DNA from: an uncultured Alcaligenaceae bacterium
Lineage (GTDB): Bacteria; Planctomycetota; Planctomycetia; Gemmatales; Gemmataceae
Assembly: GCA_964471755.1 (NCBI GenBank)
Contig: CAYYJM010000097.1
Location: forward strand, 1 to 14,565
Direction: 5' to 3'
DNA length: 14,565 nucleotides
Each line of letters begins with the position of its first letter. The first letter of the stretch is position 1. The translations under genes were made by a program, and so were the position numbers. The notes beneath the pieces are model-generated. The model had not been told where the DNA came from. It was given only the letters and a program-made list of their open reading frames with translations, and did not search any database. Below, piece after piece: positions 19 through 14,565 of this stretch.

Positions 19-3000
19 TCAGGGCTCGCTGAGGATCGACGCGAAATCGATGTCCGTCCGAGAGTGCGGCGTGAATTGATCGGTGGCCGTCATCTGGCGG
101 TAGGCGTCCTTGCTGGCACTGCTGAGGTACTCCAACTGCGTCAGGAGGAGGTGAACTCGTTCGTGGTAGAAGATCACGTCCTCACCGCCTGGATGGCTGA
201 GGATCTCCTGACCTTCGAGGGCCTCCTCGGCCAGTTGCTGGAGTGCCTCACCCGCAGAGCTGTTCGGCCGCTCCAGAACGACCAGTTCCTGGACCGCGAC
301 GACACCACTGGACTGGTTCGCCGGCCGGCGCGGAGTGGCCTGCAGGTCTGGTTCGGCCTTCTGAAGGCAGACTTCCACCTCGCCCAGGCGGAGGCTGTTC
401 GAGGTCGTCTGCTGCAAGAACAGGTCGGCGACGCTGGTCTCGGCCAGGTGACCGTTCGCGAAGCGACTGGCCACCTCTAGCAAGCTGTCCTGCACTCCGC
501 GCAGGGGCGTGTTGGAGAGACAGACATTCACCAGGGCCTGGTATTTCTCGCGGATCATGGCCTCGATCTGGTGGTCCAGTTCGAGCAACTGGTCGGGGCC
601 GATCTCAGCGACGATCTTCTCCAGGGCCTCGCTCAGACTCTTGCAGCCTCCGGGCAGGAGGATGCGACCCGCTTCCGGACGCAGGCCGGTCCCCTGGGCG
701 CTGAAGTTGGCCGCGACCCGGCCGGGATGGCTGCTACTGATCACCGGCGTGCCCAGCGCTTCGAGGCTGCGCAGCAGCTCTCCGAGGCGGACTCGACAGA
801 AGTTGACCTCACGGAGTTCGTCGGAAAGATGGCCGCGCAGGGCCAGGAACGTCTGGGAGATCCGGTGCAAGATCAGGCTCTGCAAGCGCACCTTGGGATA
901 GGCACGCAGGATGGTGATCAGCTGATCGGGAGTGTAGTTGAGCTGCTTGCCACGACCGGCCAGGATCTCCTGGAGGGTGTTGTAGCCGTTCTTCGCCTGG
1001 AGGTCAAAATCCTTGCCGAGCGGTTCGTGGTGTTGCAGGATCTGTTCCAGCTGTGCCAGCAGTTGCCGGATGGCTTCCTCGGCCCCGGCCAGGCGGAACT
1101 CCGGCTCCTCCAGCAGGCGGACGGCGATCTCGGTCAGTTTCTGGCTCCACTCGTTCATCAACGACTCGGCCACCGTACGCAGGTAGGTGTCGAAGAGACT
1201 CGACTGGACGTGGAGAGTCTCCTCGCTCGGTTTGCCGAGCAGGCGTTCGAGTTCCTCGACCACCGGCTGCAGTTCGTCGGGCGGGATGTCTGCGGCCGTC
1301 ACCTGGCCCCAGCGTTTGGCCGGGACCGAAGACGCGGCGCGCAGCTGGCGAACCAGGGGCTCGACCACGGCCAGGAGTGCCGTTTCCGGGTCCTTGCCGA
1401 CCTGCTCACGCAACCGATCCTGAAGGCGTTCGAGGAAGGACTCGACCCCGAGATCGCGACGCTGCCATTGTTCCTTGACGACGCTCGTGACGGCTCCGAG
1501 GATCGGCTTGCTATCCTTGCTCATCCAGCGCACGACCAGTTGCATGCACAGGTGGCGAGCGGCCTCGCGGAGCAGTTCACGGCGCGGCCAGGAAAGCCGG
1601 TGCAGGCCGAAGGTCTGAGCGTAGAGTCCGCGTTCGTTCCAGGGCGGACCCGGCAAGCCGGCCCGGCCCAGATCGGCGACCCGACCCAGCGGCGTGCCCA
1701 GATCGCGGAACAGCATCTGGCCGGTCATGTCCTGCAGCTCGCGCGTGCGGACTTCCTCACTCTCGTCCGGCAACGGTAAGAGGATGGTCCGGACGAAGGG
1801 CGGTTCGCCATCGGAGAGGGGAGTTTCGCGTTCGTGGTAGCGGCCGGTGAAGACCGTTCCCGGTGTGGCGAAGTAGCGCAATTCCGTGAGGGCGGCAAAG
1901 GTGTTGCTCCGACGCAGGCGCTCGTCCCAGTTCTCGGGTCCGGGCCGGCCGCGCCGGGAATCGGGAACGAGGAGAACGGCGACGATGTCGGGTTGCTCAA
2001 ACCCGCGCTGTCGGATCAAGGAGCGAAGGACGTAGGCCAGATCGAGAAACATGCCCGAGCCGGTTCCGCCGGCCAGGTTGGCGATCAGGTAGACGCGGGG
2101 CCGATTGGTGCGCAGCCCACAGCCGGTTTCGCTCGCGGCTCGTTGCAGGGCGGCCGGGTCCAGGATGGCGTCCAGCTCGGCGGCCAGGCGGTGAAGGATG
2201 AGCCGGTAATTGTCGCAGAAGGCGAGCCGGCCCAGGGCACGGACGCCGGTGGTCACCTGCGAGCGCGGGATGCGATAGAGCATCTGCTGCGGAATCCACG
2301 TCTCCAGGCTCGGCCGACCTTCGCGCGGTTTGAGGTAGTGGCTGGGCCGATTGAGCGGAGCCAGGAGGACCTCGTTGCTGGACAGGGCCGGCCCGGACTT
2401 GCCCTGGGTCGCCGTCCGGGTGACATCCGGATCGGTGTCGAGCAGAAGAAGCTTCAAGCTGGGGAGGGCGTCGAGGCCACCGAACGACTCGACGAGCCGC
2501 TCACGCAGGCGGCGCAGGATGCCCAGTCCGCTCTGACCCAGACCGATGACCAGGCCGGGGAACAGACAGCCGTCGCCCTTGATCTCTGGCACGGGCTTGC
2601 GCGGTTGATTCCCCGCGCTGCCCGTCAGGGGGGCAGATCGGTGAGCGGCGGTCGCCTGCGCCTCGACGCTCCGCAGTGGGTGGGTGGTCCCCGGGCCGGA
2701 GTCGGGCGGAGAGGACGGACGGTTCGCGCCTGCGATTCGTGTCGAGTCGCTCGGCACGATGGCTGCGGGCTCCGGTCGTGATTCCGCCAGTGTGCCCGTG
2801 GTGGGGACTTCCGAACGAAGCGAGGCCGACGGCTCTCCTTCCTTCAGAAGCTGGACCATTTCCATGCAGGTAGGGAAACGATCCGCTGGCGTCTTGGCGA
2901 GTGCCCGCAGGATGATCGGTTGCTCCCACGAAGGCAGCGTCGCGACGTTCGGCTGACCCTGGAGGTGTTGCAGGATCAACTGGCGGATGTTCGAGCCGGA

Positions 3001-3648
3001 GAAAGGACGCTGGCCGGTGAGCAGTTCCTGGTAGCAGATCGCCAGGCTGTACTGATCGCTGTGTCGGCTGACGATGCCGTCGAACGTTTCGGGAGCGGCG
3101 TAGACGGGCGTGATGCCGCCGGTGACCTTGGTTTCGAGCCCTTCGAGATCCTTGACCAGGCCGAAGTCCGCCACCTTGACGTGGTTGTGGACGAGGAAGA
3201 GATTCTGTGGCTTGATGTCCAGGTGCTGCAACTGGTACAGGCCGTTCATCAGATCGAGGGCCTCGGCCGTCTCCGCCAGATAGCCGAGCAGTTCGTCGCG
3301 GGGGATGCCGGGCAGTCCCTGAGCGCGGCACTCCTTGAAGCGGTCCCAGAGGTTGCGATCGGCCAACTCCATGACGATGAGGAGCTGGCCGTTGATGATG
3401 TCGTAGCGTTCCAGCGACAGGATGTAGGGATGGCGAACGGTCTTGACGCGCGCGAGGGCCTTGAGTTCCTGCTCGGCGCGTTCACCGTCGTCGGTACTCT
3501 GGAGGTCGCCGTAGACGAACTTGATGGCCTTGTGCAGACCGCCGGGGGCCTCGCACTTCCAGACCTCGCCAAAGCCGCCGCCGCCCAGTCGCTCGATGAG
3601 GCGATAGCCAGGAAGCGGTTCGGCGTTGAATTCCAGGCGGGCCGTCAT
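19..3648 (-). CDS. Multidomain protein: N-terminal Hanks-type Ser/Thr protein kinase, Pro/Ser-rich linker, tubulin/FtsZ-superfamily GTPase-like domain, ~500-aa alpha-helical C-terminal region
   Basis: 1209-aa ORF, ATG start at 3648-3646 preceded by GGAGAG SD 8 nt upstream. Kinase motifs: GGGGFGEV (G-loop), AIKF (VAIK Lys), HLDIKPQN (catalytic loop), DFG, AAPE. Tubulin/FtsZ motifs: VIGLGQSGLGIL (T1-like Gly loop, aa ~366-378) and LIANLAGGTGSGMFLDLAYVLR (tubulin signature GGGTGSG plus H4-like helix, aa ~521-542). No internal stops; codon usage consistent with neighbours. Confidence 0.85.
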   Translation of the reverse strand: MTARLEFNAEPLPGYRLIERLGGGGFGEVWKCEAPGGLHKAIKFVYGDLQSTDDGERAEQELKALARVKTVRHPYILSLERYDIINGQLLIVMELADRNLWDRFKECRAQGLPGIPRDELLGYLAETAEALDLMNGLYQLQHLDIKPQNLFLVHNHVKVADFGLVKDLEGLETKVTGGITPVYAAPETFDGIVSRHSDQYSLAICYQELLTGQRPFSGSNIRQLILQHLQGQPNVATLPSWEQPIILRALAKTPADRFPTCMEMVQLLKEGEPSASLRSEVPTTGTLAESRPEPAAIVPSDSTRIAGANRPSSPPDSGPGTTHPLRSVEAQATAAHRSAPLTGSAGNQPRKPVPEIKGDGCLFPGLVIGLGQSGLGILRRLRERLVESFGGLDALPSLKLLLLDTDPDVTRTATQGKSGPALSSNEVLLAPLNRPSHYLKPREGRPSLETWIPQQMLYRIPRSQVTTGVRALGRLAFCDNYRLILHRLAAELDAILDPAALQRAASETGCGLRTNRPRVYLIANLAGGTGSGMFLDLAYVLRSLIRQRGFEQPDIVAVLLVPDSRRGRPGPENWDERLRRSNTFAALTELRYFATPGTVFTGRYHERETPLSDGEPPFVRTILLPLPDESEEVRTRELQDMTGQMLFRDLGTPLGRVADLGRAGLPGPPWNERGLYAQTFGLHRLSWPRRELLREAARHLCMQLVVRWMSKDSKPILGAVTSVVKEQWQRRDLGVESFLERLQDRLREQVGKDPETALLAVVEPLVRQLRAASSVPAKRWGQVTAADIPPDELQPVVEELERLLGKPSEETLHVQSSLFDTYLRTVAESLMNEWSQKLTEIAVRLLEEPEFRLAGAEEAIRQLLAQLEQILQHHEPLGKDFDLQAKNGYNTLQEILAGRGKQLNYTPDQLITILRAYPKVRLQSLILHRISQTFLALRGHLSDELREVNFCRVRLGELLRSLEALGTPVISSSHPGRVAANFSAQGTGLRPEAGRILLPGGCKSLSEALEKIVAEIGPDQLLELDHQIEAMIREKYQALVNVCLSNTPLRGVQDSLLEVASRFANGHLAETSVADLFLQQTTSNSLRLGEVEVCLQKAEPDLQATPRRPANQSSGVVAVQELVVLERPNSSAGEALQQLAEEALEGQEILSHPGGEDVIFYHERVHLLLTQLEYLSSASKDAYRQMTATDQFTPHSRTDIDFASILSEP
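1549..2565 (-). other. Tubulin/FtsZ-like GTPase domain (aa ~362-700 of the 19..3648 protein)
   Basis: T1-like GLGQSG loop and exact tubulin signature motif AGGTGSGM followed by a helix resembling tubulin H4; domain boundaries approximate. Confidence 0.65.
2839..3606 (-). other. Ser/Thr protein kinase catalytic domain (aa ~15-270 of the 19..3648 protein)
   Basis: All Hanks subdomain motifs present in order (GxGxxG, K of AIK, HxDxKPxN, DFG, APE). Confidence 0.85.
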
Positions 3649-3796: not shown

Positions 3797-4954
3797 ATGG
3801 CAGCAATCCGGAGGGACCGTGTCGTGACTCTGTACGCGCTGTCGATCAAGCAACCGTGGGCCGCCCTGCTCGTGCAGGGCCGCAAGACGATCGAGGTGCG
3901 CCGCTGGACCACGCGCCGGCGGGGGCTGGTCCTGATCCACGCCGCCCGGGTGCCGGACGCGCGGCCGGAAGGCTGGCGGCACGTCGGCCCGGACCTGGAG
4001 TCGGTCGCGCGCCTCAACGGCGGCATCCTCGGCGTGGCCGTCCTTCGCGACGTACTGACCTACCGCACGTCGGCCGGGTTCGTGGCGGACCAGGCGAAGC
4101 ACTTCAACGAACCGGGCTGGTTCGAGGAATCGGGCCTGTACGGACTGGTGTTCGCGCAGGCGGCACGGGTGCCGTTCTATCCGTTCACGGCACAGGTGCG
4201 GTTCTGCCGGGTCGAGGGATTTCCGATGGCGAGCCTGCCGACTGAGTTCCGCGCCCTGGCCGCCGTCGCGGATCGCAGGACGGGGAGCCGGCTGCTGGTG
4301 AGCGTTCGCTCGGCGGCCGAGGCGCGCGCGGCGATCGCCGGCGGCTGTGATCTGCTCGACGCCAAGGAGCCGACTGCCGGGCCGCTGGGTGCCGTCACGC
4401 CGGCGGTCCTGGCGGACATCCTGGCCGAGGCCGGTGGCGTGCCCGTCAGCGCCGCCCTGGGGGAATTGCCATCGTCCGGCCCGCTGCTGGGCGTGCCGAC
4501 CGGGGTGACGTACGTCAAGATCGGCCTGGCCGGCTGGGGCCAGCGCGACTGGCGACGCCGCCTGGCCGAGGTGCGGTCGCCGCGTCTGGTGGTCGCCGCG
4601 TATGCCGATCATGTGCGAGCCGGTTCGCCGACGCCGGAAGCGCTGCTGGAGGCGGCCATCGACCTGCAGGCGGCCGCGTTTCTGATCGACACCTGGACGA
4701 AGGATGGTGGCGACCTGCTCGGAGCCGTGGGCCGGGGTCGGCTGGCGGCCCTCGTCGCACGGGCGCGATCCGGCGCGATGCCGATCGCGCTGGCCGGATC
4801 GCTGACCGCCCCGACGATCGCGGCCCTGGGCTTCCTGGCACCGGACTGGTTCGCCGTGCGCGGCGCGGCGTGCGAGGGTGGACGGGGCGGCGTGGTTTCC
4901 GCCGAGCGGGTGCGCGATCTGACCCGGTTGCTGCACGGCGACACGGAGACGTAG
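3797..4954 (+). CDS. Fusion protein: N-terminal ASCH (PUA-like) domain + C-terminal MfnB-like (DUF556/COG1891, (5-formylfuran-3-yl)methyl phosphate synthase family) TIM-barrel aldolase domain
   Basis: ASCH-like N-terminus: LYALSIKQPWAALLVQGRKTIEVRRW. C-terminal half aligns motif-by-motif to archaeal MfnB: LLVSVRSAAEARAAIAGGCDLLDAKEPTAGPLGA (Schiff-base Lys region DxK), YVKIGLAG, VVAAYADHVRAG, ALAGSL, VRGAACEGGRG. Alternative start GTG at 3824 is in frame and has a GGAGG SD 8 nt upstream; the ATG at 3797 lacks an SD. Confidence 0.8.
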   Translation: MAAIRRDRVVTLYALSIKQPWAALLVQGRKTIEVRRWTTRRRGLVLIHAARVPDARPEGWRHVGPDLESVARLNGGILGVAVLRDVLTYRTSAGFVADQAKHFNEPGWFEESGLYGLVFAQAARVPFYPFTAQVRFCRVEGFPMASLPTEFRALAAVADRRTGSRLLVSVRSAAEARAAIAGGCDLLDAKEPTAGPLGAVTPAVLADILAEAGGVPVSAALGELPSSGPLLGVPTGVTYVKIGLAGWGQRDWRRRLAEVRSPRLVVAAYADHVRAGSPTPEALLEAAIDLQAAAFLIDTWTKDGGDLLGAVGRGRLAALVARARSGAMPIALAGSLTAPTIAALGFLAPDWFAVRGAACEGGRGGVVSAERVRDLTRLLHGDTET

Positions 4955-6127: not shown

Positions 6128-6260
6128 TGTAGGGTGGGCCGAGCGCCAGCGAGAGCCCACCGAGCCCGCTGTGACAAACGATCAGGGGACGTTCCGGCTT
6201 GATTCATCGTTCATCGTTTCCGCCACGGTGGGCTCTCGCTGACGCTCGGCCCACCCTACA
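6128..6260. repeat. 35-bp near-perfect inverted repeat pair (arms 6128-6162 and 6226-6260, 1 mismatch) flanking a 63-bp spacer; each arm itself contains a gtgggc...gcccac mini-hairpin
   Basis: tgtagggtgggccgagcgccagcgagagcccaccg vs cggtgggctctcgctgacgctcggcccaccctaca (reverse complement differs only g/a). Spacer contains tandem catcgtt catcgtt. Lies between the stop of the enolase gene (6301) and the lgt start (6061), both minus strand. Confidence 0.6.
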
Positions 6261-6300: not shown

Positions 6301-7404
6301 TCACCCGATCTCGACCACCGCCTTGCCCAGGACCTCCCATCGTGGCGTGACACCCAGGCCGGGAGACGTACTCGCGGCCAGCCGACCATTCTGTCTCCGG
6401 GGCGCGCCCTCGGCGTTGGAGACGGTAACGTAACTGTTGAAGTCCGTCGAGGTGAACAGGAACTCCGGCGGCGTGCTGTGAGCCAGGTGCGCGATCGCTG
6501 CCGTGACGATGTCACCGCCCCAGCTGTCCTCCAGCGTCATGGCCAGGCCGAGCGAGACGCACAGATCGCGAGCCTGTCGTGCCTTCGTCAGCCCGCCGAA
6601 CTTGCTGATCTTGATGTTGACCACGTCCATCGCCCGGTCGGCATGGCCGCGCAGCAGCACGTCCACCGAATCGATGTTCTCGTCGAGGACGAATGGATGA
6701 TCCGTGTGACGCCGTACGGTCAGGCACTCCTCGTACGTCCGGCACGGCTGCTCGATGTACACGTCCACGTCGCGCACCGCTCGGACGACTCGCAGGGCCT
6801 CGTGCATCAGCCAGCCGGTGTTGGCGTCGGCGACGAGCCGATCACCGGGCTGTAACTTCGCGGCCACCTGGTGAATGCGCTGGACATCCACGTCCGGGTC
6901 GCCGCCGACCTTGAGCTGAAAGCGGCGGTAGCCCTCGGCCCGGTAGCCAGCGACACGCTCGGCCATCGCCTCGGGAGCCTCCTGCGAGATGGCTCGATAG
7001 AGACCGAAATCCTCGCCGTAGCGGCCGCCGAGCAGGACACAGACCGGCTGACCGGTCGCCTGGCCGAGCAGATCCCAGCAGGCCATGTCGAGGCCGGACT
7101 TGACGTAGGCATGCCCCTGGAGGGCGGCGTCCATCCGGCGATTGAGTTTGCCGAGCTGGGTGGGATCTTCGCCGAGCAGGTGCGGCCCGAGTTCGCGCAG
7201 ACCGGCCCGCACCCCGGCGGCGTAGGCCGGCAGGTAGAACGGGCCAAGCGGACAGACCTCGCCATGACCGACGAGGCCGGTGTCCGTCTCGACGGCGATG
7301 ACGGTGCTGTCGAAGACGGTGATGGCCTTGCCGCCGGACCACTTGTAGCTCCCCTCGGCCAGGGGCAACTCGACACGGTAGGCACGGATACGGCTGATCT
7401 TCAT
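6301..7404 (-). CDS. Enolase-superfamily enzyme, mandelate racemase/muconate lactonizing enzyme (MR/MLE) family (racemase/epimerase/dehydratase; exact substrate unknown)
   Basis: 368 aa by the ORF track (GTG at 7407, then ATG at 7404). Metal ligands in canonical MR/MLE spacing: DANTGW, IEQPC, LDENI. Conserved [13 protein letters not shown] motif (catalytic Lys at end of 6th strand). Second-strand motif FQLKVGG. Start overlaps hflK stop (GTGATG). Confidence 0.85.
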
Positions 7405-8348
7405 CACGGCTTCTCCATCCTCGGCAGCAGATCGTCGATCAGGCCGAGTTGGCCCGTCTCCTGCAACTGGCGTAGCACACGCGTGCGCTCCTCACGCCAG
7501 AGTTGCTCCAGGTAATTCGGATTCTTCACGATCGCCTCGACCAGCACGGCGACGCGGGCCGCAAACCGCTCGGCGTTCCGGCGAGCCAGTTCACGCTGCG
7601 TGTAAGCGTAGCTCGCGGCCGATTTCTCGATCCGCTGGGCCTCCGCGTGGGCGGCCTCGACCTGAGAGAACTGCTCCTGCCGCGCTCGCGTCTCCTGCGT
7701 GTGGATGTTCGCCTGGGCGCGCGAGACGCTGTCGAACGCCTGCTTGACCTGCTCCGGCGGAGCCAGGTGGACGACGCGCACATCGATCACCGCAATCCCC
7801 AGTCGATACGGATCGAGCCGACTGGCCAGATCGCCGACGAGGAAGGTCGGCAGCGTGACCTTGCCATCAAGCAGAACGTCATCGACGTTCCGCCCCGCGA
7901 CCCATCCGGCCAGGCTCGACTCGGTAACCCGACCCAGAAGCGGCTCGACCCGCTGGCGTGCGAGGACGTAGTCCTCCAGGCCGTCCTCTGGCACCTTGAA
8001 CGAGACGACGACGCGGACATCGATCAGGTTGTGATCACCGGTGAGCAGCTGTCCCGGTGGATTCGCCGACTCGCCGCGACGCCGGGCGGCCTCCCGGGCC
8101 TCCTCGGTGTTCAGGTCTGGATCGAAGCCGACAGCGAGGGTCTGGATGCGATCGACCGGCACGCGATCGACCTGATCGATGCCCCACGGCCAGCCGATGC
8201 GGAGGCCCGGTCCCGGCTTGAACGGCAGGAACGCACCGAATCGGCGAACGACGGCCCGCTCGCCCGGCCGCACCTCGACGATGCCGGTCAGCAGCCAGCC
8301 GACCAGGACGACGCCGAGCAGGAGGAGGAAGATTCGGCGCACGCTCAC
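7404..8348 (-). CDS. hflK: HflK-like SPFH/band-7 membrane protein
   Basis: 314 aa. N-terminal TM helix ([15 protein letters not shown]) then [16 protein letters not shown]...[13 protein letters not shown] and [39 protein letters not shown], matching E. coli HflK core (ERGVVTRFGK...; LLDVNFQAARPPEEVKAAFDDAIAARENEQQYIREAE). GTG start at 8348 overlaps hflC stop by 4 nt. Confidence 0.85.
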
Positions 8349-9322
8349 GACCCGCCTTTCTTGATCGGCTCCGGCGCGGGCGGCGTCGGCGGCTCGGTCA
8401 GCGTCTTGAAGCGTTTGGTCGAGAGCAGCAGGACCGACTTGCCGGTCGAGAGGAGGCTCTTGAGGTCTTCGAGTTCCTTGAGGAAGGCGTAGAACTCGGG
8501 TCGGCGGAGCTGCGTCTCGTTGAGGATACGGTCGGCGGTGGCATCGGCCTTGCCGCGAGCGGCGATGGCCTGGCCCTCGGCGTCGGCCTTGAGCTTGCCG
8601 ACTTCCAGTTCGGTCTCGCTGCGGATGTTCGCGGCCAGGCGTTCGCCGCGGCTCTCGTACTCGGCCGCCTTGCGATCGCGTTCGCTGATGATCCGCTCGA
8701 AGATGGCCGGCCGAACCGCGGGCGGATGGTTCGACCGCCGGAGCCGGACATCGACGACCTCGATGCCGTACTCGGTCCTGGCTCGCTCGCGCAGTCCGGG
8801 GCCGCCGGCCGATGGCTGATCGAGCAGCGTCTGGCGAAGGCGATCGCGTTCGCGATCGACCTTGCCGGGTTCGGTGCTGATGAGGTCGGCGAGTTCCATC
8901 CGGCCGATGGCGGCACCGAGTGCGTTGTTGATGTCACGATCGAGCAGGGCCTGGGCTCCGGTGACGGTGCCGACCTTGCGGATAAAGCGATCGACGTCGT
9001 CGCGGGTGGCGATCCGCCAGCAGACGTAGGCGTCGATGGTGAGGGTCTGATCGATGGTGCCGCGCTCCCGATCACGGGTGAGCAGCTCGGCTCCGGGCAG
9101 GTCGAGGTACTGCAGTCGGCGGTCGATGCGCTGGACGCTCTCGATGGGCCAGGGCCATTTCAGGTGGAGGCCGGCGTCGCTGGACTCGCTCCCGTCGTAG
9201 GTCGCGACGTGAGCGCCGAACTGTGTGCGATAGACGAACTCGCCGGCGTCCACGGTGAACAGCGACGAGCGCACCAGGGCGATGAGGAGAATGAGGCCGA
9301 AGATTCCGAGTAGCGTTCGCAT
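8345..9322 (-). CDS. hflC: HflC-like SPFH/band-7 membrane protein
   Basis: 325 aa. TM helix (LLGIFGLILLIALV) then FTVDAGEFVYRTQFGA...GLHLKWPWPIESV, GIEVVDVRLRRSNHPPAV, and C-terminal RPEFYAFLKELE, matching E. coli HflC (FVVKEGERGITLRFGK; GIEVVDVRIKQINLP; DPDFYAFIRSL). GAGGG SD 8 nt upstream of ATG. Confidence 0.85.
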   Translation of the reverse strand: MRTLLGIFGLILLIALVRSSLFTVDAGEFVYRTQFGAHVATYDGSESSDAGLHLKWPWPIESVQRIDRRLQYLDLPGAELLTRDRERGTIDQTLTIDAYVCWRIATRDDVDRFIRKVGTVTGAQALLDRDINNALGAAIGRMELADLISTEPGKVDRERDRLRQTLLDQPSAGGPGLRERARTEYGIEVVDVRLRRSNHPPAVRPAIFERIISERDRKAAEYESRGERLAANIRSETELEVGKLKADAEGQAIAARGKADATADRILNETQLRRPEFYAFLKELEDLKSLLSTGKSVLLLSTKRFKTLTEPPTPPAPEPIKKGGS

Positions 9323-9334
9323 GGACAGATTCCC

Positions 9335-10039
9335 TCACGCGATCCACAAATCGCTGCACGCCTGCTCGCAGCTCTGCTCCAGATTCAACGGCACAACCTG
9401 ATCCTCGCTCAACCACAGCGGCAGCGTCGGCAGCGGTTGACCGACGTTCAGGGCGTGCGACCAGGCTTCCAGCAGTGTCCGCTTGCCGCGCCGGACCCAT
9501 CGACACGACGCGGCGTAAATATCCGGGGGCGGATCGCCGTGCGACGGGTCAGCGTGCCCGAGGAAGGCGAGCAACTCGACGTACAGGTTGAACTGCCGCA
9601 CGGTCACCAGATCGACGATGCTCACGGCGACGCCCTTCTGGAGCAGAGCGGCACACTTGGCGACGAAGACGTTGCGATGCTCGGGTCGGTCCAGGTTCGC
9701 GGGGCTGACGATCTCGATGGCGGCGACCAGAAGCCGGCTGCGGGTAGCGTCGAACACACGCACGCCATACTCGTCGTAGATGGGCAGCGTCGTCTCGACG
9801 CACAGACTGGGGGGCGTCGGTGCCCAGTCTGCCGCGCTGGTGTCGGTCTCATCGACCGGCTCGACCTGCGAGATGGCGTTCTCCCGGTGGAACCCGGAAT
9901 GCACCCGTGGCTCCGCGACGTGGCCAGACGGAAGTCGTTTCCGCAACTGCTGGACGATGACCGCAGGCCAGCCTCCAAAGAAGCCCTCCCACGAAGCGAT
10001 CGTGTCCACCGGCGGTCGGAAGTGATCGCGTAGCGGCAT
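9335..10039 (-). CDS. DUF4058 / Uma2-like (PD-(D/E)XK-fold) family protein
   Basis: 234 aa. Core block LLVAAIEIVSPANLDRPEHRNVFVAKCAALLQKGVAVSIVDLVTV resembles the DUF4058/Uma2 consensus (D...IEVLSP.NK...gR..Y..K......g..L.EIDLL). Strong GGAGGAG SD 9 nt upstream of ATG, located inside the 3' end of the ATPase gene; ATG lies 3 nt after the ATPase stop. Confidence 0.6.
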   Translation of the reverse strand: MPLRDHFRPPVDTIASWEGFFGGWPAVIVQQLRKRLPSGHVAEPRVHSGFHRENAISQVEPVDETDTSAADWAPTPPSLCVETTLPIYDEYGVRVFDATRSRLLVAAIEIVSPANLDRPEHRNVFVAKCAALLQKGVAVSIVDLVTVRQFNLYVELLAFLGHADPSHGDPPPDIYAASCRWVRRGKRTLLEAWSHALNVGQPLPTLPLWLSEDQVVPLNLEQSCEQACSDLWIA

Positions 10040-10042
10040 GGC

Positions 10043-13000
10043 TCACGGCTCCTCCGGCCGACGCGGCAACGACGGCATCACCGGCCGACGATCGAACGAG
10101 TCACCGCCCGGCAGCAGGCCCTTGCGCTGCTCGCCCAGGATCATCCAGAGTTGCAGCCAGCCCGGCAGGGCCACGTCGTCGATCAGAAACTTCTCGCGCA
10201 AGGCCAGGGCCGACGCGATCGCCTCGGACGCCAGTCGGAACTCCGTCAGGTACGCCTGCTGCTCCAGTCGATGCCGACGAGCCTCCTGCAACCACGACCA
10301 CGCCGCCTCCGGCTTCTCTCCGCCATCGACTCGAGCCCCGGCGGCCAGGAACAGGCCAACCTCGCTCGTCCACGATAGTGTCGATCGACTGTCATCGCGA
10401 CCGAAAAAGACCGTCTGCCGAGCCCGGGCCAGTCGCTCCTTCTCGTAGCTCTGCACCACGGCCTCGCTCACCCGCCGCAGCGAGCGGCCAAACTGGTCGG
10501 CCAGGTTGCGCGTCCGGGCGGCCTCCGCCTCGTTCTTCCGACGGTCGGCCCGCTCCATCGCCACGGCCACTCGATGGTACGCGCCAACCACCTCCGGCGG
10601 CGGATGCAGATCGTGCAGCGCCAGCCCCGTCACCTCCAGGCCAAGACCCGGCGAGCCAAACTCCGCCAGCCGGCCCTGAAGCCGGGTCAGGGCTTCGCCC
10701 TGGAACTCGCGACGATCCTGTGTCAGCAGACTCTCGAACGACCGACCAGCAACCAGCTCGCGGAAGACCGCCTCGGCACTGCCACGAACGACCGCCTCCG
10801 GATCGCCCACGTCGAACAGGTAGACACGCGGCTCCGTGATCCGGTAACGGATGGCCGCCTGGACCTCGATCAGGTTGCCGTCGCCCGTGATCATGACGGC
10901 CTCGTCCGGCAGCAGACGAATGCCCTCGCCGGAATGACCACTACTCCACGAACGGCCGTCGGCCAGGCCCCCCTCGGGGCGATCGACCCGGTAGCCGATC
11001 GCCACCGAGCGGATGCGATCGGGCTGCACCCGACGAACCGTCTCGATCGGCCAGGGCCAGCGCCAGTGCAGGCCCGGCGACAGGTCGGCGACCGGCTTGC
11101 CGAAACGCTGCACGATGCCGACCTCGTCGGACTGGATCGCGGTCAGACCCCAGAGCGGATAGATGACCAGCAGAAGCAGACCCAGCGTCGCCAGGATCGG
11201 CCGCCAGTGGTGCGTCACCCAGTGCAGGCCCTCTTCGAGGTTGAGGTACTTCTCCGTCCAGTCATTGACACCGGTCAGCCAGTGGCGGAAGCCGGCGTAC
11301 GTCCGGCTCTCCGGCTTCTCGAACCAGAGCAGCCGCATCGCGTTGAGCAGCACCGCGAGCGAGCCGAGTTGGTGGTAGAGGACGGCGGCCAGCGGCGACT
11401 GCTCGTACCAGGCCGCCGGAGCGAACAGCGGCCAGAGCCAGGAGGTCAGGACGACGCCGACGACGTTGACGACGATCGCGAACCAGAAGATGTTCTGGCC
11501 GATGATGGCGACCGTCTGCCGGGACAGCCGCACGAGCAGCGGCAGGTGACGGAGCGGATCACCCATGCAGACGACATCGCCGGTCTCGGCGGCGATGTCA
11601 GTGCCGGTGCCGCCGATGGCCAGGCCGACCGTGGCACGGGCCAGGGCCGGGGCGTCGTTGATGCCATCGCCGACCATCGCGACGCGCTTGCCCTCGGCCT
11701 CCCACGCCGCGACGAACTCGGCCTTCTGCGTGGGGAGAAGTTCGGCATGAACCTCGGCCAGGCCGAGCTGATCGGCGACGTTCCGGGCGACGGCAGCGCG
11801 GTCGCCGGTTAGCATGGCGACGCGGCCGATGCCCAGGCCGCGCAGTTCGGAGAGAACGTCGCTCGCCTCGTCGCGGACCCGGTCGCGGACGCCGAGGACG
11901 GCGATGACGTGCAGATCGCCAGGAATGCCAGGAGCCGGCTCACTCGTGGAGGCACCGCCGGGCTGGGCCTGGATCTGGGCCGACGTGGTCGGCTCGGCGA
12001 TGCTGCCCCGTGCCAGGAGCAGGGCCGTCTGACCGGCGGCGTCGAGTTCCCCCAGGGTCTTCAGGACCGCCTCGGGAAGAGCGACACCGAGTTCCTCCAG
12101 GAGCCGACGATTGCCGACGAGCAGGGTCGCCTCGCCAGCGACGGCCAGGATGCCGAGACCGGGATACGCCTGGAAGCGTTCGACCGTCGGCAGATCGAGG
12201 CCGCGCTTGCGCGCCTCGCCGACGAGCAGTTCGGCGAGAAGATGCTCGCTGCGCTGCTCGGCCGTCGCCGCCCAGGCGAGGAGTTCGGTTTCGGAATGCC
12301 CGCCCACCGGGACGATGCGGGCGAGTTCGAGCCGGCCCGCCGTCAGGGTGCCGGTCTTGTCGAAGGCGAAGGCATCGACCGTGGCGAGGCGTTCGAGGGC
12401 GGCCCCGCTCTTGATCAGGATGCCGGTGCCGGCGAGCCGTCCCAGCGCGGCGATGACGGCCGCTGGCGTCGCCAGGATCAGGGCACACGGGCAGGCGACG
12501 ACCAGGACCGACAGGGCCGGATAGGCGGCGATGCGGATCGCCTGCATCAGGGTGAAGCGCAGGCCCTCGCCGGGTCGGGTCCAGCCGCTCCAGACGGCGT
12601 AGACGCCGACGAGAAACGTCACCAGGGCCAGGCCGAGAACGATCGGCAGGAACCAGCGTGCGAGCCGGTCGGCGGTGCGTTCCAGTGGGGCCTTGTTCTG
12701 CAAGGCCCGGGCGGTCCACTCGACGACCTGGCCGGCGACGGTATGCTCGGCGACCCGGCGGGCCTCGATCGTCAGGGCACCGGTCTGGTTGAGGCAACCG
12801 GCCAGGATCTCGTCGCCGGGACCGCGATCGACCGGCAGACTCTCGCCGGTCAGGGCGCTGGTATCGACGGACGATCGACCGTCACGGACGACGCCATCGC
12901 AGGGAATCCGACCGCCCGGCTTGACGACGACCACGTCGCCGACCTGAAGCTCGGCAATGAGGATGCGCTCCTCCTGCCCGTCGCGCAGACGCCAGCAGCG

Positions 13001-13501
13001 GCGCGGGAAGACCTCGGCGAGCTGGCGGATCGCATGCTGGGTTCGCTCGAAGGTGACACTCTCCAGACACTCACCGAGCATGCCGATGAAGACGATCTCG
13101 GCGGCGACGAGCGGTTCTTGCAGCAGGATGGCGGCGATGCAGGCGAGGGCCAGGGCGAGATCGGCTCCGAGTCGGCCCTGCAAGAGCGAGTCGATGGAGC
13201 CATAGAGGGCGCGAGCGCCGCCGAGGATGGCGGCGAGCAGAGCGAGACGGTAGCCGGCGTAGGTGTTGGGCCAGCTCGGCAGACCCAGGCCGAAGCCGTT
13301 GAACCTGGCGGCGACGTAGACCCACAGGTCGGCGACGATGAGCAGACCGATGAGGGCCGTCAGCAGGTAGAGCGTAAGACGGCTCTCCTGCTCCAACCGC
13401 GAATCAGCGTAGGAAATCTCGCGGTGCATGACAGATCGACCAGGAGGGAGAATCGGATCGGGCTCGACTGTCAGGCTACGGGCGATGGCGAAGTCAGTCA
13501 A
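10043..13501 (-). CDS. P1B-type (heavy-metal, CPC-motif) P-type ATPase fused in frame to an extra TM helix and a C-terminal HflK-like SPFH/band-7 domain
   Basis: 1152-aa uninterrupted ORF. ATPase motifs: TGES (A-domain), ACPCAL (TM6 CPC), DKTGTLT (phosphorylation site), SEHLLA (HP-like), MLTGD, MVGDGINDAPAL, final TM pair ending LLNAMRLL (aa ~670-725). Then linker, TM helix HWRPILATLGLLLLVIYPLW (aa ~765-784) and SPFH domain: EVGIVQRFGKPVADLSPGLHWRWPWPIETV ... GLEVTGLALHDLHPPPEVVGAYHRVAVAMERADRRKNEAEAAR (HflK-like). No N-terminal CxxC metal-binding domain. Start is TTG per the ORF track; an alternative ATG sits at aa 25 (nt 13429). Confidence 0.85.
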   Translation of the reverse strand: MTDFAIARSLTVEPDPILPPGRSVMHREISYADSRLEQESRLTLYLLTALIGLLIVADLWVYVAARFNGFGLGLPSWPNTYAGYRLALLAAILGGARALYGSIDSLLQGRLGADLALALACIAAILLQEPLVAAEIVFIGMLGECLESVTFERTQHAIRQLAEVFPRRCWRLRDGQEERILIAELQVGDVVVVKPGGRIPCDGVVRDGRSSVDTSALTGESLPVDRGPGDEILAGCLNQTGALTIEARRVAEHTVAGQVVEWTARALQNKAPLERTADRLARWFLPIVLGLALVTFLVGVYAVWSGWTRPGEGLRFTLMQAIRIAAYPALSVLVVACPCALILATPAAVIAALGRLAGTGILIKSGAALERLATVDAFAFDKTGTLTAGRLELARIVPVGGHSETELLAWAATAEQRSEHLLAELLVGEARKRGLDLPTVERFQAYPGLGILAVAGEATLLVGNRRLLEELGVALPEAVLKTLGELDAAGQTALLLARGSIAEPTTSAQIQAQPGGASTSEPAPGIPGDLHVIAVLGVRDRVRDEASDVLSELRGLGIGRVAMLTGDRAAVARNVADQLGLAEVHAELLPTQKAEFVAAWEAEGKRVAMVGDGINDAPALARATVGLAIGGTGTDIAAETGDVVCMGDPLRHLPLLVRLSRQTVAIIGQNIFWFAIVVNVVGVVLTSWLWPLFAPAAWYEQSPLAAVLYHQLGSLAVLLNAMRLLWFEKPESRTYAGFRHWLTGVNDWTEKYLNLEEGLHWVTHHWRPILATLGLLLLVIYPLWGLTAIQSDEVGIVQRFGKPVADLSPGLHWRWPWPIETVRRVQPDRIRSVAIGYRVDRPEGGLADGRSWSSGHSGEGIRLLPDEAVMITGDGNLIEVQAAIRYRITEPRVYLFDVGDPEAVVRGSAEAVFRELVAGRSFESLLTQDRREFQGEALTRLQGRLAEFGSPGLGLEVTGLALHDLHPPPEVVGAYHRVAVAMERADRRKNEAEAARTRNLADQFGRSLRRVSEAVVQSYEKERLARARQTVFFGRDDSRSTLSWTSEVGLFLAAGARVDGGEKPEAAWSWLQEARRHRLEQQAYLTEFRLASEAIASALALREKFLIDDVALPGWLQLWMILGEQRKGLLPGGDSFDRRPVMPSLPRRPEEP
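10046..11224 (-). other. C-terminal TM helix + SPFH/band-7 (HflK-like) domain (aa ~760-1152) of the fusion protein
   Basis: Shares the WPWPIE(S/T)V block with the adjacent HflC-like protein and the PPE(E/Q)V..A(F/Y) block with HflK. Confidence 0.75.
11312..13501 (-). other. P1B-ATPase core (aa 1-~730) of the fusion protein
   Basis: Complete set of P-type ATPase motifs; see the CDS entry. Confidence 0.8.
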
Positions 13502-14163: not shown

Positions 14164-14565
14164 GTGGCCATCAGTCCCGATAAAGTGTTGGCCGAGTTCA
14201 ACCAGAAACGCCAGGAGATGACCCGCCAACTCCGCGAGGTTATCGTCGGCCAGAACGAGGTCATCGAGCAGATCCTGGCCGCCATCTTTACACGCGGTCA
14301 CTGCCTGCTCATCGGCGTGCCCGGCCTGGCCAAGACGCTCATGGTCTCGTCGATCAGCCGCATTCTCGATGTCGCCTTCAAGCGCGTCCAGTTCACGCCG
14401 GACCTGATGCCCTCGGACATCACCGGCACGACGGTCCTGGAAGAACACGAGAGCGGCCGGCGCGAGTTCCGCTTCGTTCGCGGCCCGATCTTCGCCAACA
14501 TCATCCTGGCCGACGAGATCAACCGGACGCCGCCCAAGACGCAGGCCGCCCTGTTGCAGGCGATG
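14164..14565 (+). CDS. MoxR-family AAA+ ATPase (5' part; continues beyond window)
   Basis: Translation from GTG 14164 (GAGGAA SD at 14155-14160): (M)[57 protein letters not shown] (Walker A) ... [16 protein letters not shown] ... [28 protein letters not shown] (Walker B + MoxR signature). Not in the ORF track because there is no stop within the window. Confidence 0.85.

Follow-up and report, generated by a model that had tools for sequence, protein, structure and literature searches.

A heavy-metal P-type ATPase fused to an HflK-type tail and its linkage to HflC- and HflK-type genes in Gemmataceae

The locus and its fusion protein

The subject of this report is a gene fusion found in a 14,565-nucleotide stretch of DNA (hereafter the window; contig CAYYJM010000097.1 of GenBank assembly GCA_964471755.1), deposited as an uncultured Alcaligenaceae bacterium and placed by GTDB in the family Gemmataceae of the Planctomycetota. 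Five consecutive open reading frames (ORFs) lie on the minus strand between positions 6301 and 13501 of the window and encode, in order of transcription, a P1B-type ATPase fused to an SPFH-family tail, a DUF4058 protein, an HflC-type protein, an HflK-type protein and an enzyme of the MR/MLE family (Table 1). Three of them, namely the fusion gene, the HflC-type gene and the free HflK-type gene, make up a unit that is conserved among relatives. Domains were assigned to the ORFs with Pfam and NCBIfam profiles and their curated cutoffs. A preliminary description of this DNA had drawn attention to the close packing of the five genes, and on re-reading the sequences we found the ORFs and their junctions as it had given them: a 3-nt gap between the fusion and the DUF4058 gene (TGAgccATG), a TGA, 12 nt and an ATG between the DUF4058 gene and hflC, a 4-nt overlap (GTGA) between hflC and hflK, and a 4-nt or 1-nt overlap (GTGATG) between hflK and the gene of the MR/MLE enzyme, a dehydratase. 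Its count of three SPFH genes likewise holds, and these can now be specified as one fused HflK type, one HflC type and one free HflK type; our alignment also bears out the WPWPIE(T/S)V block that it had seen in both the fused tail and HflC, and the PPxEV block common to the tail and HflK.

Table 1. Position and content of the features in the window
Feature	Position	Strand	Content and evidence
Fusion gene, P1B ATPase and HflK-type SPFH tail	10043..13429	-	E1-E2_ATPase, Hydrolase and Band_7 in one ORF
ATPase core	11315..13429	-	Residues 1-705 counted from M25; helices MA, MB, M1-M6; A, P and N domains
Cytoplasmic linker	11207..11314	-	~36 residues, VNDW..L..EEGLHW..HHWR; joins ATPase helix M6 to HflK anchor helix
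Ninth transmembrane helix	11129..11206	-	Hydropathy segment residues 742-767; predicted helix 66-83 of the tail model
HflK-type body, putatively periplasmic	10046..11128	-	SPFH1/2, CC1, ~35-residue insertion, CC2, C-terminal YLxEF...K.LID motif
SPFH1 loop with W828-x3-H832 motif	10910..10987	-	WSSGH at 10934..10948; low pLDDT
DUF4058 gene, lineage-specific passenger	9335..10039	-	PF13267, 30.6 bits (gathering score 25)
HflC-type SPFH gene, conserved fusion partner	8345..9322	-	TIGR01932, 140.9 bits (cutoff 134.4)
Free HflK-type SPFH gene	7404..8348	-	No N-terminal extension; third conserved member of the module
cis-3-Hydroxy-L-proline dehydratase gene (MR_MLE_N/C)	6301..7407	-	NF043002, 607.3 bits over residues 2-367 (cutoff 500)
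Inverted-repeat hairpin between dehydratase gene and lgt	6128..6260	-	Probable 3' boundary of the transcription unit
MoxR-type AAA+ ATPase gene	14170-14565	+	Divergent from the fusion gene; runs off the window end

The fusion gene encodes 1128 residues from an ATG at position 13429. Although its open frame reaches a TTG at 13501, the true start is most likely this ATG (MHREI...), judging from the sequences compared, because MHRE is the N-terminus of the homologues, whose alignments start at residue 25 of the open frame or just before. Our first table of homologues held only proteins of at most ~800 residues, which raised the suspicion that the fusion was an artefact of assembly. This was rejected: the fusion is one uninterrupted frame in ~60 other genomes, intact fusions of 1000-1150 residues are common, and the short homologues are explained by fragments at contig ends and by frameshifted long-read assemblies.

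The N-terminal part of the protein belongs to the heavy-metal (P1B) ATPases, scoring 535.3 bits against TIGR01525 (cutoff 346.25), and its closest sequence relatives in the PDB are CopA, sCoaT and ZntA. As in CopA, ZntA and the P1B-4 pumps sCoaT and CzcP, there is a full core of eight helices with the motifs TGES (residue 194), CPC (313), DKTGT (357), SEH, MLTGD and GDGINDAP (GDGxNDxP in the family). The catalytic motifs are at least 98% conserved across 60 full-length fusions, and because all of them are conserved in relatives the ATPase should be an active pump. Unlike these P1B ATPases it has no N-terminal HMA domain; its N-terminus is the conserved MHRE, and SEHL stands in place of SEHP.

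The metal-ligand signature is non-canonical as well. A CPC in M4, as found in P1B-1/2 pumps, is combined with VN in M5, where CopA has YN, and with YHQLGS (YHQxGS) in M6, as against AMALSS in LpCopA and VHEGST in the P1B-4 pump sCoaT (HEGST in P1B-4). When aligned to LpCopA, Tyr is replaced by Val, M717 by His and S720 by Gly, and the P1B-4-like His is present; this signature matches no described P1B subgroup in which we could place it. A P1B-1 Cu+ pump of the CopA type was considered and is ruled against both by the score on the Cu family model TIGR01511 (372.8 bits, below the cutoff of 397) and by the replacement of the Cu+ ligands Y, M and S. From the ligand residues, a divalent transition metal appears more likely than Cu+ to be the transported ion, and the label 'Cu+-exporting ATPase' that homologues carry at JGI finds no support in them.

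P1B ATPases have eight helices with both termini in the cytoplasm, as seen in the CopA and ZntA structures. In the fusion protein M6 is followed by a linker in which, in our alignment A1, W48 is invariant and H60 nearly so, and for which two short helices are predicted (predicted local distance difference test score, pLDDT, ~54-67). The linker leads into a ninth transmembrane helix that aligns to the N-terminal transmembrane anchor of E. coli HflK. Because P1B ATPases have eight helices with their termini in, one extra helix would bring the HflK-type body that follows to the periplasmic side, as in the HflK topology. An additional C-terminal helix and an SPFH domain in the P1B family were the subject of no report found in our full-text literature search.

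An alignment of the tail to E. coli HflK runs from anchor helix to C-terminal motif and covers all elements, at a mean identity of 28% (versus 19% to E. coli HflC), and the tail falls on the K side of the tree. Its sole sequence matches in the PDB are the E. coli HflK entries 7vhq, 7vhp and 9paw (7wi3 shares the sequence of 7vhp), and a Foldseek search with its AlphaFold model (pLDDT 74) gave as best match the HflK chain 7vhq_E (E 3e-16), with further top matches being chains of other HflK/C cage entries. The wall helix CC1 is 68 residues long in the predicted structure. The ~35-residue insertion between CC1 and CC2 is typical of the closer (Gemmataceae) relatives, and relatives without it have the length of E. 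coli HflK between SPFH2 and the C-terminal motif. The score on the hflK model TIGR01933 is 119.5 bits (residues 788-1030; equivalog cutoff 159.4). By sequence, by fold and by the topology that we infer, the fused tail is a complete HflK.

The HflC type groups with E. coli HflC in the tree, its alignment includes the FYAF...L(L/V)LS C-terminal motif, and its predicted wall helix (CC1) of 70 residues is compatible in length with the 68 residues of the fused tail. The free HflK type groups with HflK in the tree and scores 122.1 bits on TIGR01933. Compared with E. coli HflK/HflC, whose assembly surrounds FtsH (PDB entries 7VHP, 7WI3 and 9CZ2), the module likewise has K-type and C-type subunits encoded side by side in K-then-C order, with a single N-terminal anchor helix, SPFH1/2, a long wall helix, a cap helix, a C-terminal motif and a body that is presumably periplasmic. 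It differs as follows: the K subunit bears a complete eight-helix P1B ATPase at the position where E. coli HflK has a glycine-rich cytoplasmic N-terminal tail of ~75 residues; hflC is followed by a further, free K-type gene; and the K types carry an insertion in SPFH1 (containing a W-x3-H motif in the fused one) and fall below the TIGR01933 cutoff.

Distribution of the module and a second exporter class

To see how far the three genes travel together, relatives of the tail were collected by a scan that took one genome per species and returned 295 stretches, the best 80 of which were compared (mostly labelled Gemmataceae or Gemmatales). A locus was counted as informative if it held at least 2.3 kb downstream of the fusion, which left 61 loci whose ORFs were called and assigned to the proteins of the window. 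We found an HflC type directly downstream of the fusion and on the same strand in 48 of these 61, and in 43 it was followed in turn by an HflK type; the remaining 5 carry the fusion and an HflC type only (three from Limnoglobus, one from Fimbriiglobus and one frameshifted assembly). Median spacing is ~28 nt between the fusion and hflC and ~-4 nt between hflC and hflK. The linkage occurs on all deep branches of the tail tree, and its losses cluster in ~5 lineages, the largest being a Gemmata-like clade. A reciprocal search of metagenomes from relatives of the HflC type covered 44 loci informative on the upstream side, and 38 of them have the fusion there, among them 4 of 5 distant hflC relatives (32-37% identity); an HflK type follows hflC in 47 of 48. 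The neighbourhood conservation that the preliminary description had proposed as a check is thus positive from the fusion side and from the hflC side alike.

In the three Limnoglobus loci and the Fimbriiglobus locus the fusion and the HflC type stand in K-then-C order with no other K-type partner encoded at the locus, and these four have the appearance of a usual hflKC pair to whose K subunit a pump has been added. No other gene family, such as a metallochaperone or a regulator, was conserved around the ATPase module in the compared loci. Some of the loci are labelled 'Acidiferrum', 'Alcaligenaceae' or 'Kuenenia'; these are most likely mis-binned or mislabelled contigs of metagenome-assembled genomes, because their sequences nest within Gemmataceae clades.

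A second line of evidence comes from an exhaustive search with the tail against 1.84 billion cluster representatives, which gave 205 proteins at E <= 1e-30. Among them were many full-length ATPase fusions of 990-1150 residues, down to ~31% identity, and also a second architecture of 560-610 residues, in which a CDF (Cation_efflux) transmembrane domain is followed by a linker, an anchor helix and an HflK body. There are ~45 such CDF::HflK clusters (e.g. from Candidatus Eisenbacteria), and their only NCBI name is 'FtsH protease activity modulator HflK'. The CDF part lacks the cytoplasmic ZT_dimer domain of its unfused relatives, and we read HxxxD motifs in it that were assigned to transmembrane helices 2 and 5. 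CDF-fused tails score above the TIGR01933 cutoff (222.6 and 259.1 bits), as does the next gene above the HflC cutoff (210 and 228 bits).

The CDF loci that we compared (L172:133-3714, L174:8001-13120, L175:6001-9607 and L176-L178) include L172 and L175-L178, the latter being four contigs with one identical protein, as two distinct gene neighbourhoods. In both of these a free HflK follows the CDF-linked hflC wherever the contig reaches that far (L178 ends within the second gene), while in L174 the CDF::HflK and hflC genes are followed by an MntR/DtxR-like regulator and FeoB instead of a free HflK. The CDF fusions therefore resemble the ATPase fusion in having the order metal exporter::HflK, HflC and (usually) HflK, and in leading from a cytoplasmic exporter C-terminus into the HflK anchor. 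On the other hand, the CDF exporter is a secondary transporter with HxxxD/HxxxD sites, and its tails are nearer to canonical HflK.

Both kinds of fusion also share the W-x3-H motif of the SPFH1 loop: 77 of 80 ATPase tails and at least 35 of 45 CDF tails carry it, and none of 45 free HflKs does (that of E. coli and 44 of the compared loci). Across 60 fusions the W and the H reach a conservation of at least 98%, and at the level of sequence the loop is a hallmark of exporter-fused HflK tails. Because two unrelated exporters share the kind of HflK, the gene order and a fusion-specific loop, a chance or neutral fusion is very unlikely. As for the origin of the tail, a neighbour-joining tree placed it as sister to the free HflK of Gemmataceae. 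We set this sisterhood aside in view of pairwise scores that show the free HflK to be fast-evolving: by these scores the tail is nearer to the CDF tails and to the free HflK of another lineage, and the free HflK of the window matches the tail with 61 bits.

A proposed pump scaffold and its alternatives

We consider a joint assembly reasonably probable, in which the fused HflK and the HflC type, in most cases together with the free HflK type, tether pumps to a membrane microdomain. The ATPase would end in the cytoplasm after helix eight, the linker would lead into the ninth helix, and the HflK body would stand in the periplasm. There the fused HflK and the HflC type (usually joined by the free HflK type) would form an alternating ring or cage like that of HflK/C on the periplasmic face, holding several copies of the pump in a delimited area of the membrane. 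Although speculative, the free HflK might serve to lower the share of bulky fused subunits at the K positions. If twelve pumps do not fit, either the pumps might lie outside the ring or the free HflK might fill most K positions, and this second arrangement would account for the retention of a further K-type gene. FtsH could, but need not, be another client of the assembly.

There is precedent for such an arrangement. Published HflK/C cages are built of 24 subunits, which either encircle four FtsH hexamers or form an open, nautilus-like shell (PMC12048511), and cages of stomatin enclose the transport proteins AQP1 and UT-B (PMC12407830). Like the stomatin cages, the module would pair an SPFH-family oligomer with a membrane transport protein and not with a protease. 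Stomatin is a homo-oligomer on the cytoplasmic face with non-covalent clients, whereas here the client is covalently fused, it is a primary-active metal pump, and the proposed assembly is an HflK/C-type hetero-oligomer on the periplasmic face.

Several points weigh against a joint assembly of this sort. No SPFH gene lies within 10 kb of the fusion in 13 of the 61 informative loci, mainly in the Gemmata-like clade, and L084, a close relative of the window, has the DUF4058, hflC and hflK genes without a fusion, so the linkage is frequent without being obligatory. Neither the fused tail nor the free HflK type reaches the TIGR01933 equivalog cutoff, and if these were the only hflK/hflC genes of their genomes, the module copies may simply be housekeeping modulators of FtsH. 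The structural models are of monomers (pLDDT ~71-74), and as such carry no information on interfaces. By our own estimate twelve eight-helix pumps inside a ring of ~20 nm are probably impossible, and the word 'caged' may mislead. As to the metal, no conserved metallochaperone or regulator was found beside the ATPase version, and neither a riboswitch nor any other RNA turned up when the window, its upstream region and seven of the related loci were searched.

The preliminary description had gone further and pictured a heteromeric K/C cage that encloses the pump instead of FtsH. In this strict form, the metal would be released into the cage lumen. It can point to a self-contained module with a covalently attached client, nothing else conserved nearby, an exporter-specific W-x3-H loop in the membrane-proximal SPFH1 domain, and stomatin cages that enclose transport proteins without any protease (PMC12407830). 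We nevertheless regard it as unlikely: no observation puts the pump within the ring as opposed to beyond it, a pump in each of the twelve K positions would probably not fit by the estimate given above, and a sealed lumen is a dead end for the metal unless the structure opens in the manner of the HflK/C nautilus form (PMC12048511). The argument that it had drawn from a missing ftsH stands only in its factual part. No ftsH was found in the window, nor within 10 kb in 89 related loci (1.3 Mb), but E. coli K-12 presents the same context, with its hfq-hflX-hflK-hflC cluster at 4.40 Mb and ftsH at 3.33 Mb, ~1 Mb apart. Because hflKC of E. coli is not beside ftsH either, the missing neighbour is uninformative on whether FtsH is a client, and it has no bearing on the strict form. 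Nor is an ftsH gene immediately upstream, which had been taken as the sign of an ordinary hflKC context, diagnostic; what lies upstream here is non-coding DNA and the MoxR-type gene. An arrangement in which the genes still serve an FtsH-HflK/C holoenzyme, and the fusion delivers the exporter to FtsH or shields it from FtsH for turnover or quality control, is a possibility to which we give a minor but real place. The HflC type is above the cutoff of the 'protease modulator HflC' equivalog, the tail and the partner of the CDF version are both above their HflK/HflC cutoffs, no direct partner of HflK/C other than FtsH is established, and PMC13220708 cites the P-type ATPase MgtA as a known substrate of E. 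coli FtsH. Against this, the K types of Gemmataceae are divergent (~27-28% identity to E. coli HflK), and HflK/C affects proteins also by routes other than known FtsH substrates (PMC12005517).

It is improbable, in our judgement, that there is no joint assembly at all, that is, that the tail is autonomous as a homo-oligomer or a periplasmic lid and the adjoining hflC-hflK genes are a housekeeping pair left as a relic of the gene fusion. The solitary fusions in 13 loci would suit this, particularly as their tails are as conserved as linked ones (tail identity of 42% in unlinked versus 38-41% in linked loci, at equal ATPase identity), as would the hflC-hflK pair of L084 without a fusion and the great divergence of the free HflK type from the tail. 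Yet the linkage is reciprocal, tight to the point of overlapping stops and starts, and kept across deep branches; the same three-gene order recurs with a different exporter (CDF); and in the loci with the fusion and hflC only, an HflC is made that has no other locally encoded K partner, HflK and HflC of E. coli being an obligate alternating hetero-oligomer. At the other extreme, all five coupled genes including those of the DUF4058 protein and the MR/MLE enzyme might form one functional system; the preliminary description had named all five in its candidate operon. The short gaps (3 nt and 12 nt) and 4-nt overlaps at the junctions and the recurrence of a DUF4058 orthologue directly 5' of hflC in L084 speak for it, but we deem it most improbable: none of the 80 species-genome loci has DUF4058 at the junction, and neither does the closest relative L087; the dehydratase occurs in none of the 80 and lies apart from hflK in L087; an insertion sequence transposase or an unrelated gene occupies the same junction elsewhere; and the dehydratase is a well-defined catabolic enzyme. 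The five-gene operon consequently does not hold up as a functional unit, and DUF4058 and the dehydratase are passengers of this genome's operon, outside the conserved system.

The components of the tethered-pump module that we favour are known families, and its proposed action extends the known biology of HflK/C. Now that cage structures exist, the roles of HflK/C and other SPFH cages beyond FtsH, and how their clients are chosen, are an active question. The fusion hard-wires a defined client, a metal pump, to a cage subunit, so that the client is named by genetics alone and in two unrelated exporter families. It also fixes the membrane side of each part, predicts a difficulty of stoichiometry to which the free HflK paralogue may be the answer, and makes ideas of client specificity and of 'microdomains' directly testable. 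Our full-text literature search found no paper on ATPase::SPFH or CDF::SPFH fusions, and their annotation is systematically misleading, with ATPase fusions named 'Cu+-exporting ATPase' without having the Cu+ ligands and CDF fusions named plain 'HflK'. It is exciting, if doubtful, to think that HflK/C-type assemblies could be modular scaffolds dedicated to particular clients, here an FtsH-independent, periplasm-facing nanodomain for metal efflux, with the W-x3-H loop placed at the exporter exit or at a site of metal hand-over. If true, the Gemmataceae and a second group that includes Candidatus Eisenbacteria would have built a metal exporter of either class covalently into the K subunit.

Passenger genes and flanking sequence

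Among the 81 loci compared in this respect, a DUF4058 gene stands at the junction of the fusion and hflC only in the window (0 of 80 species-genome loci). The orthologue in L084 (69% identity, 43.7 bits on PF13267) lies directly upstream of hflC-hflK; in L084 (L084:9254-11919) and L085, which have the order DUF4058-hflC-hflK and an HflC 83% identical to that of the window, a SulP transporter gene on the opposite strand stands where the fusion would be. The closest relative, L087 (HflC 88% identical), has fusion, hflC and hflK without DUF4058. The junction is a recurrent point of insertion, holding a DDE transposase in one genome and an unrelated gene in another (L008:11581-12966; L013:11800-12600). 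In none of the 80 species-genome loci does the dehydratase gene adjoin the module, and its overlap with hflK is peculiar to the genome of the window; L087 has the gene ~500 nt downstream of hflK, with an opposite-strand ORF in between. An opposite-strand ORF of 72 residues located 3' of hflK is conserved in L084 and L087 and is missing from the window.

On its 5' side the fusion gene is preceded by ~740 nt without a recognisable gene and then by the divergent MoxR-type gene, which is not a conserved neighbour in the other fusion loci compared. On the 3' side of the operon, the inverted-repeat hairpin has arms of 55 nt that are 82% complementary and an RNA fold of -103.9 kcal/mol (z = -11), and could be a terminator or a REP/MITE-like element. 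Two further ORFs of the window are of note: one of 1209 residues at 19-3648 on the minus strand, with an N-terminal Ser/Thr protein kinase domain and a Tubulin_2 (tubulin-like) domain, and one of 385 residues at 3797-4954 on the plus strand, which combines ASCH and 4-HFC-P synthase (MfnB-like) domains in one frame. In the relative L087 the ASCH and MfnB-like parts are two separate overlapping genes (155 and 219 residues), and the single ORF of the window may represent a gene fusion or a frame difference.

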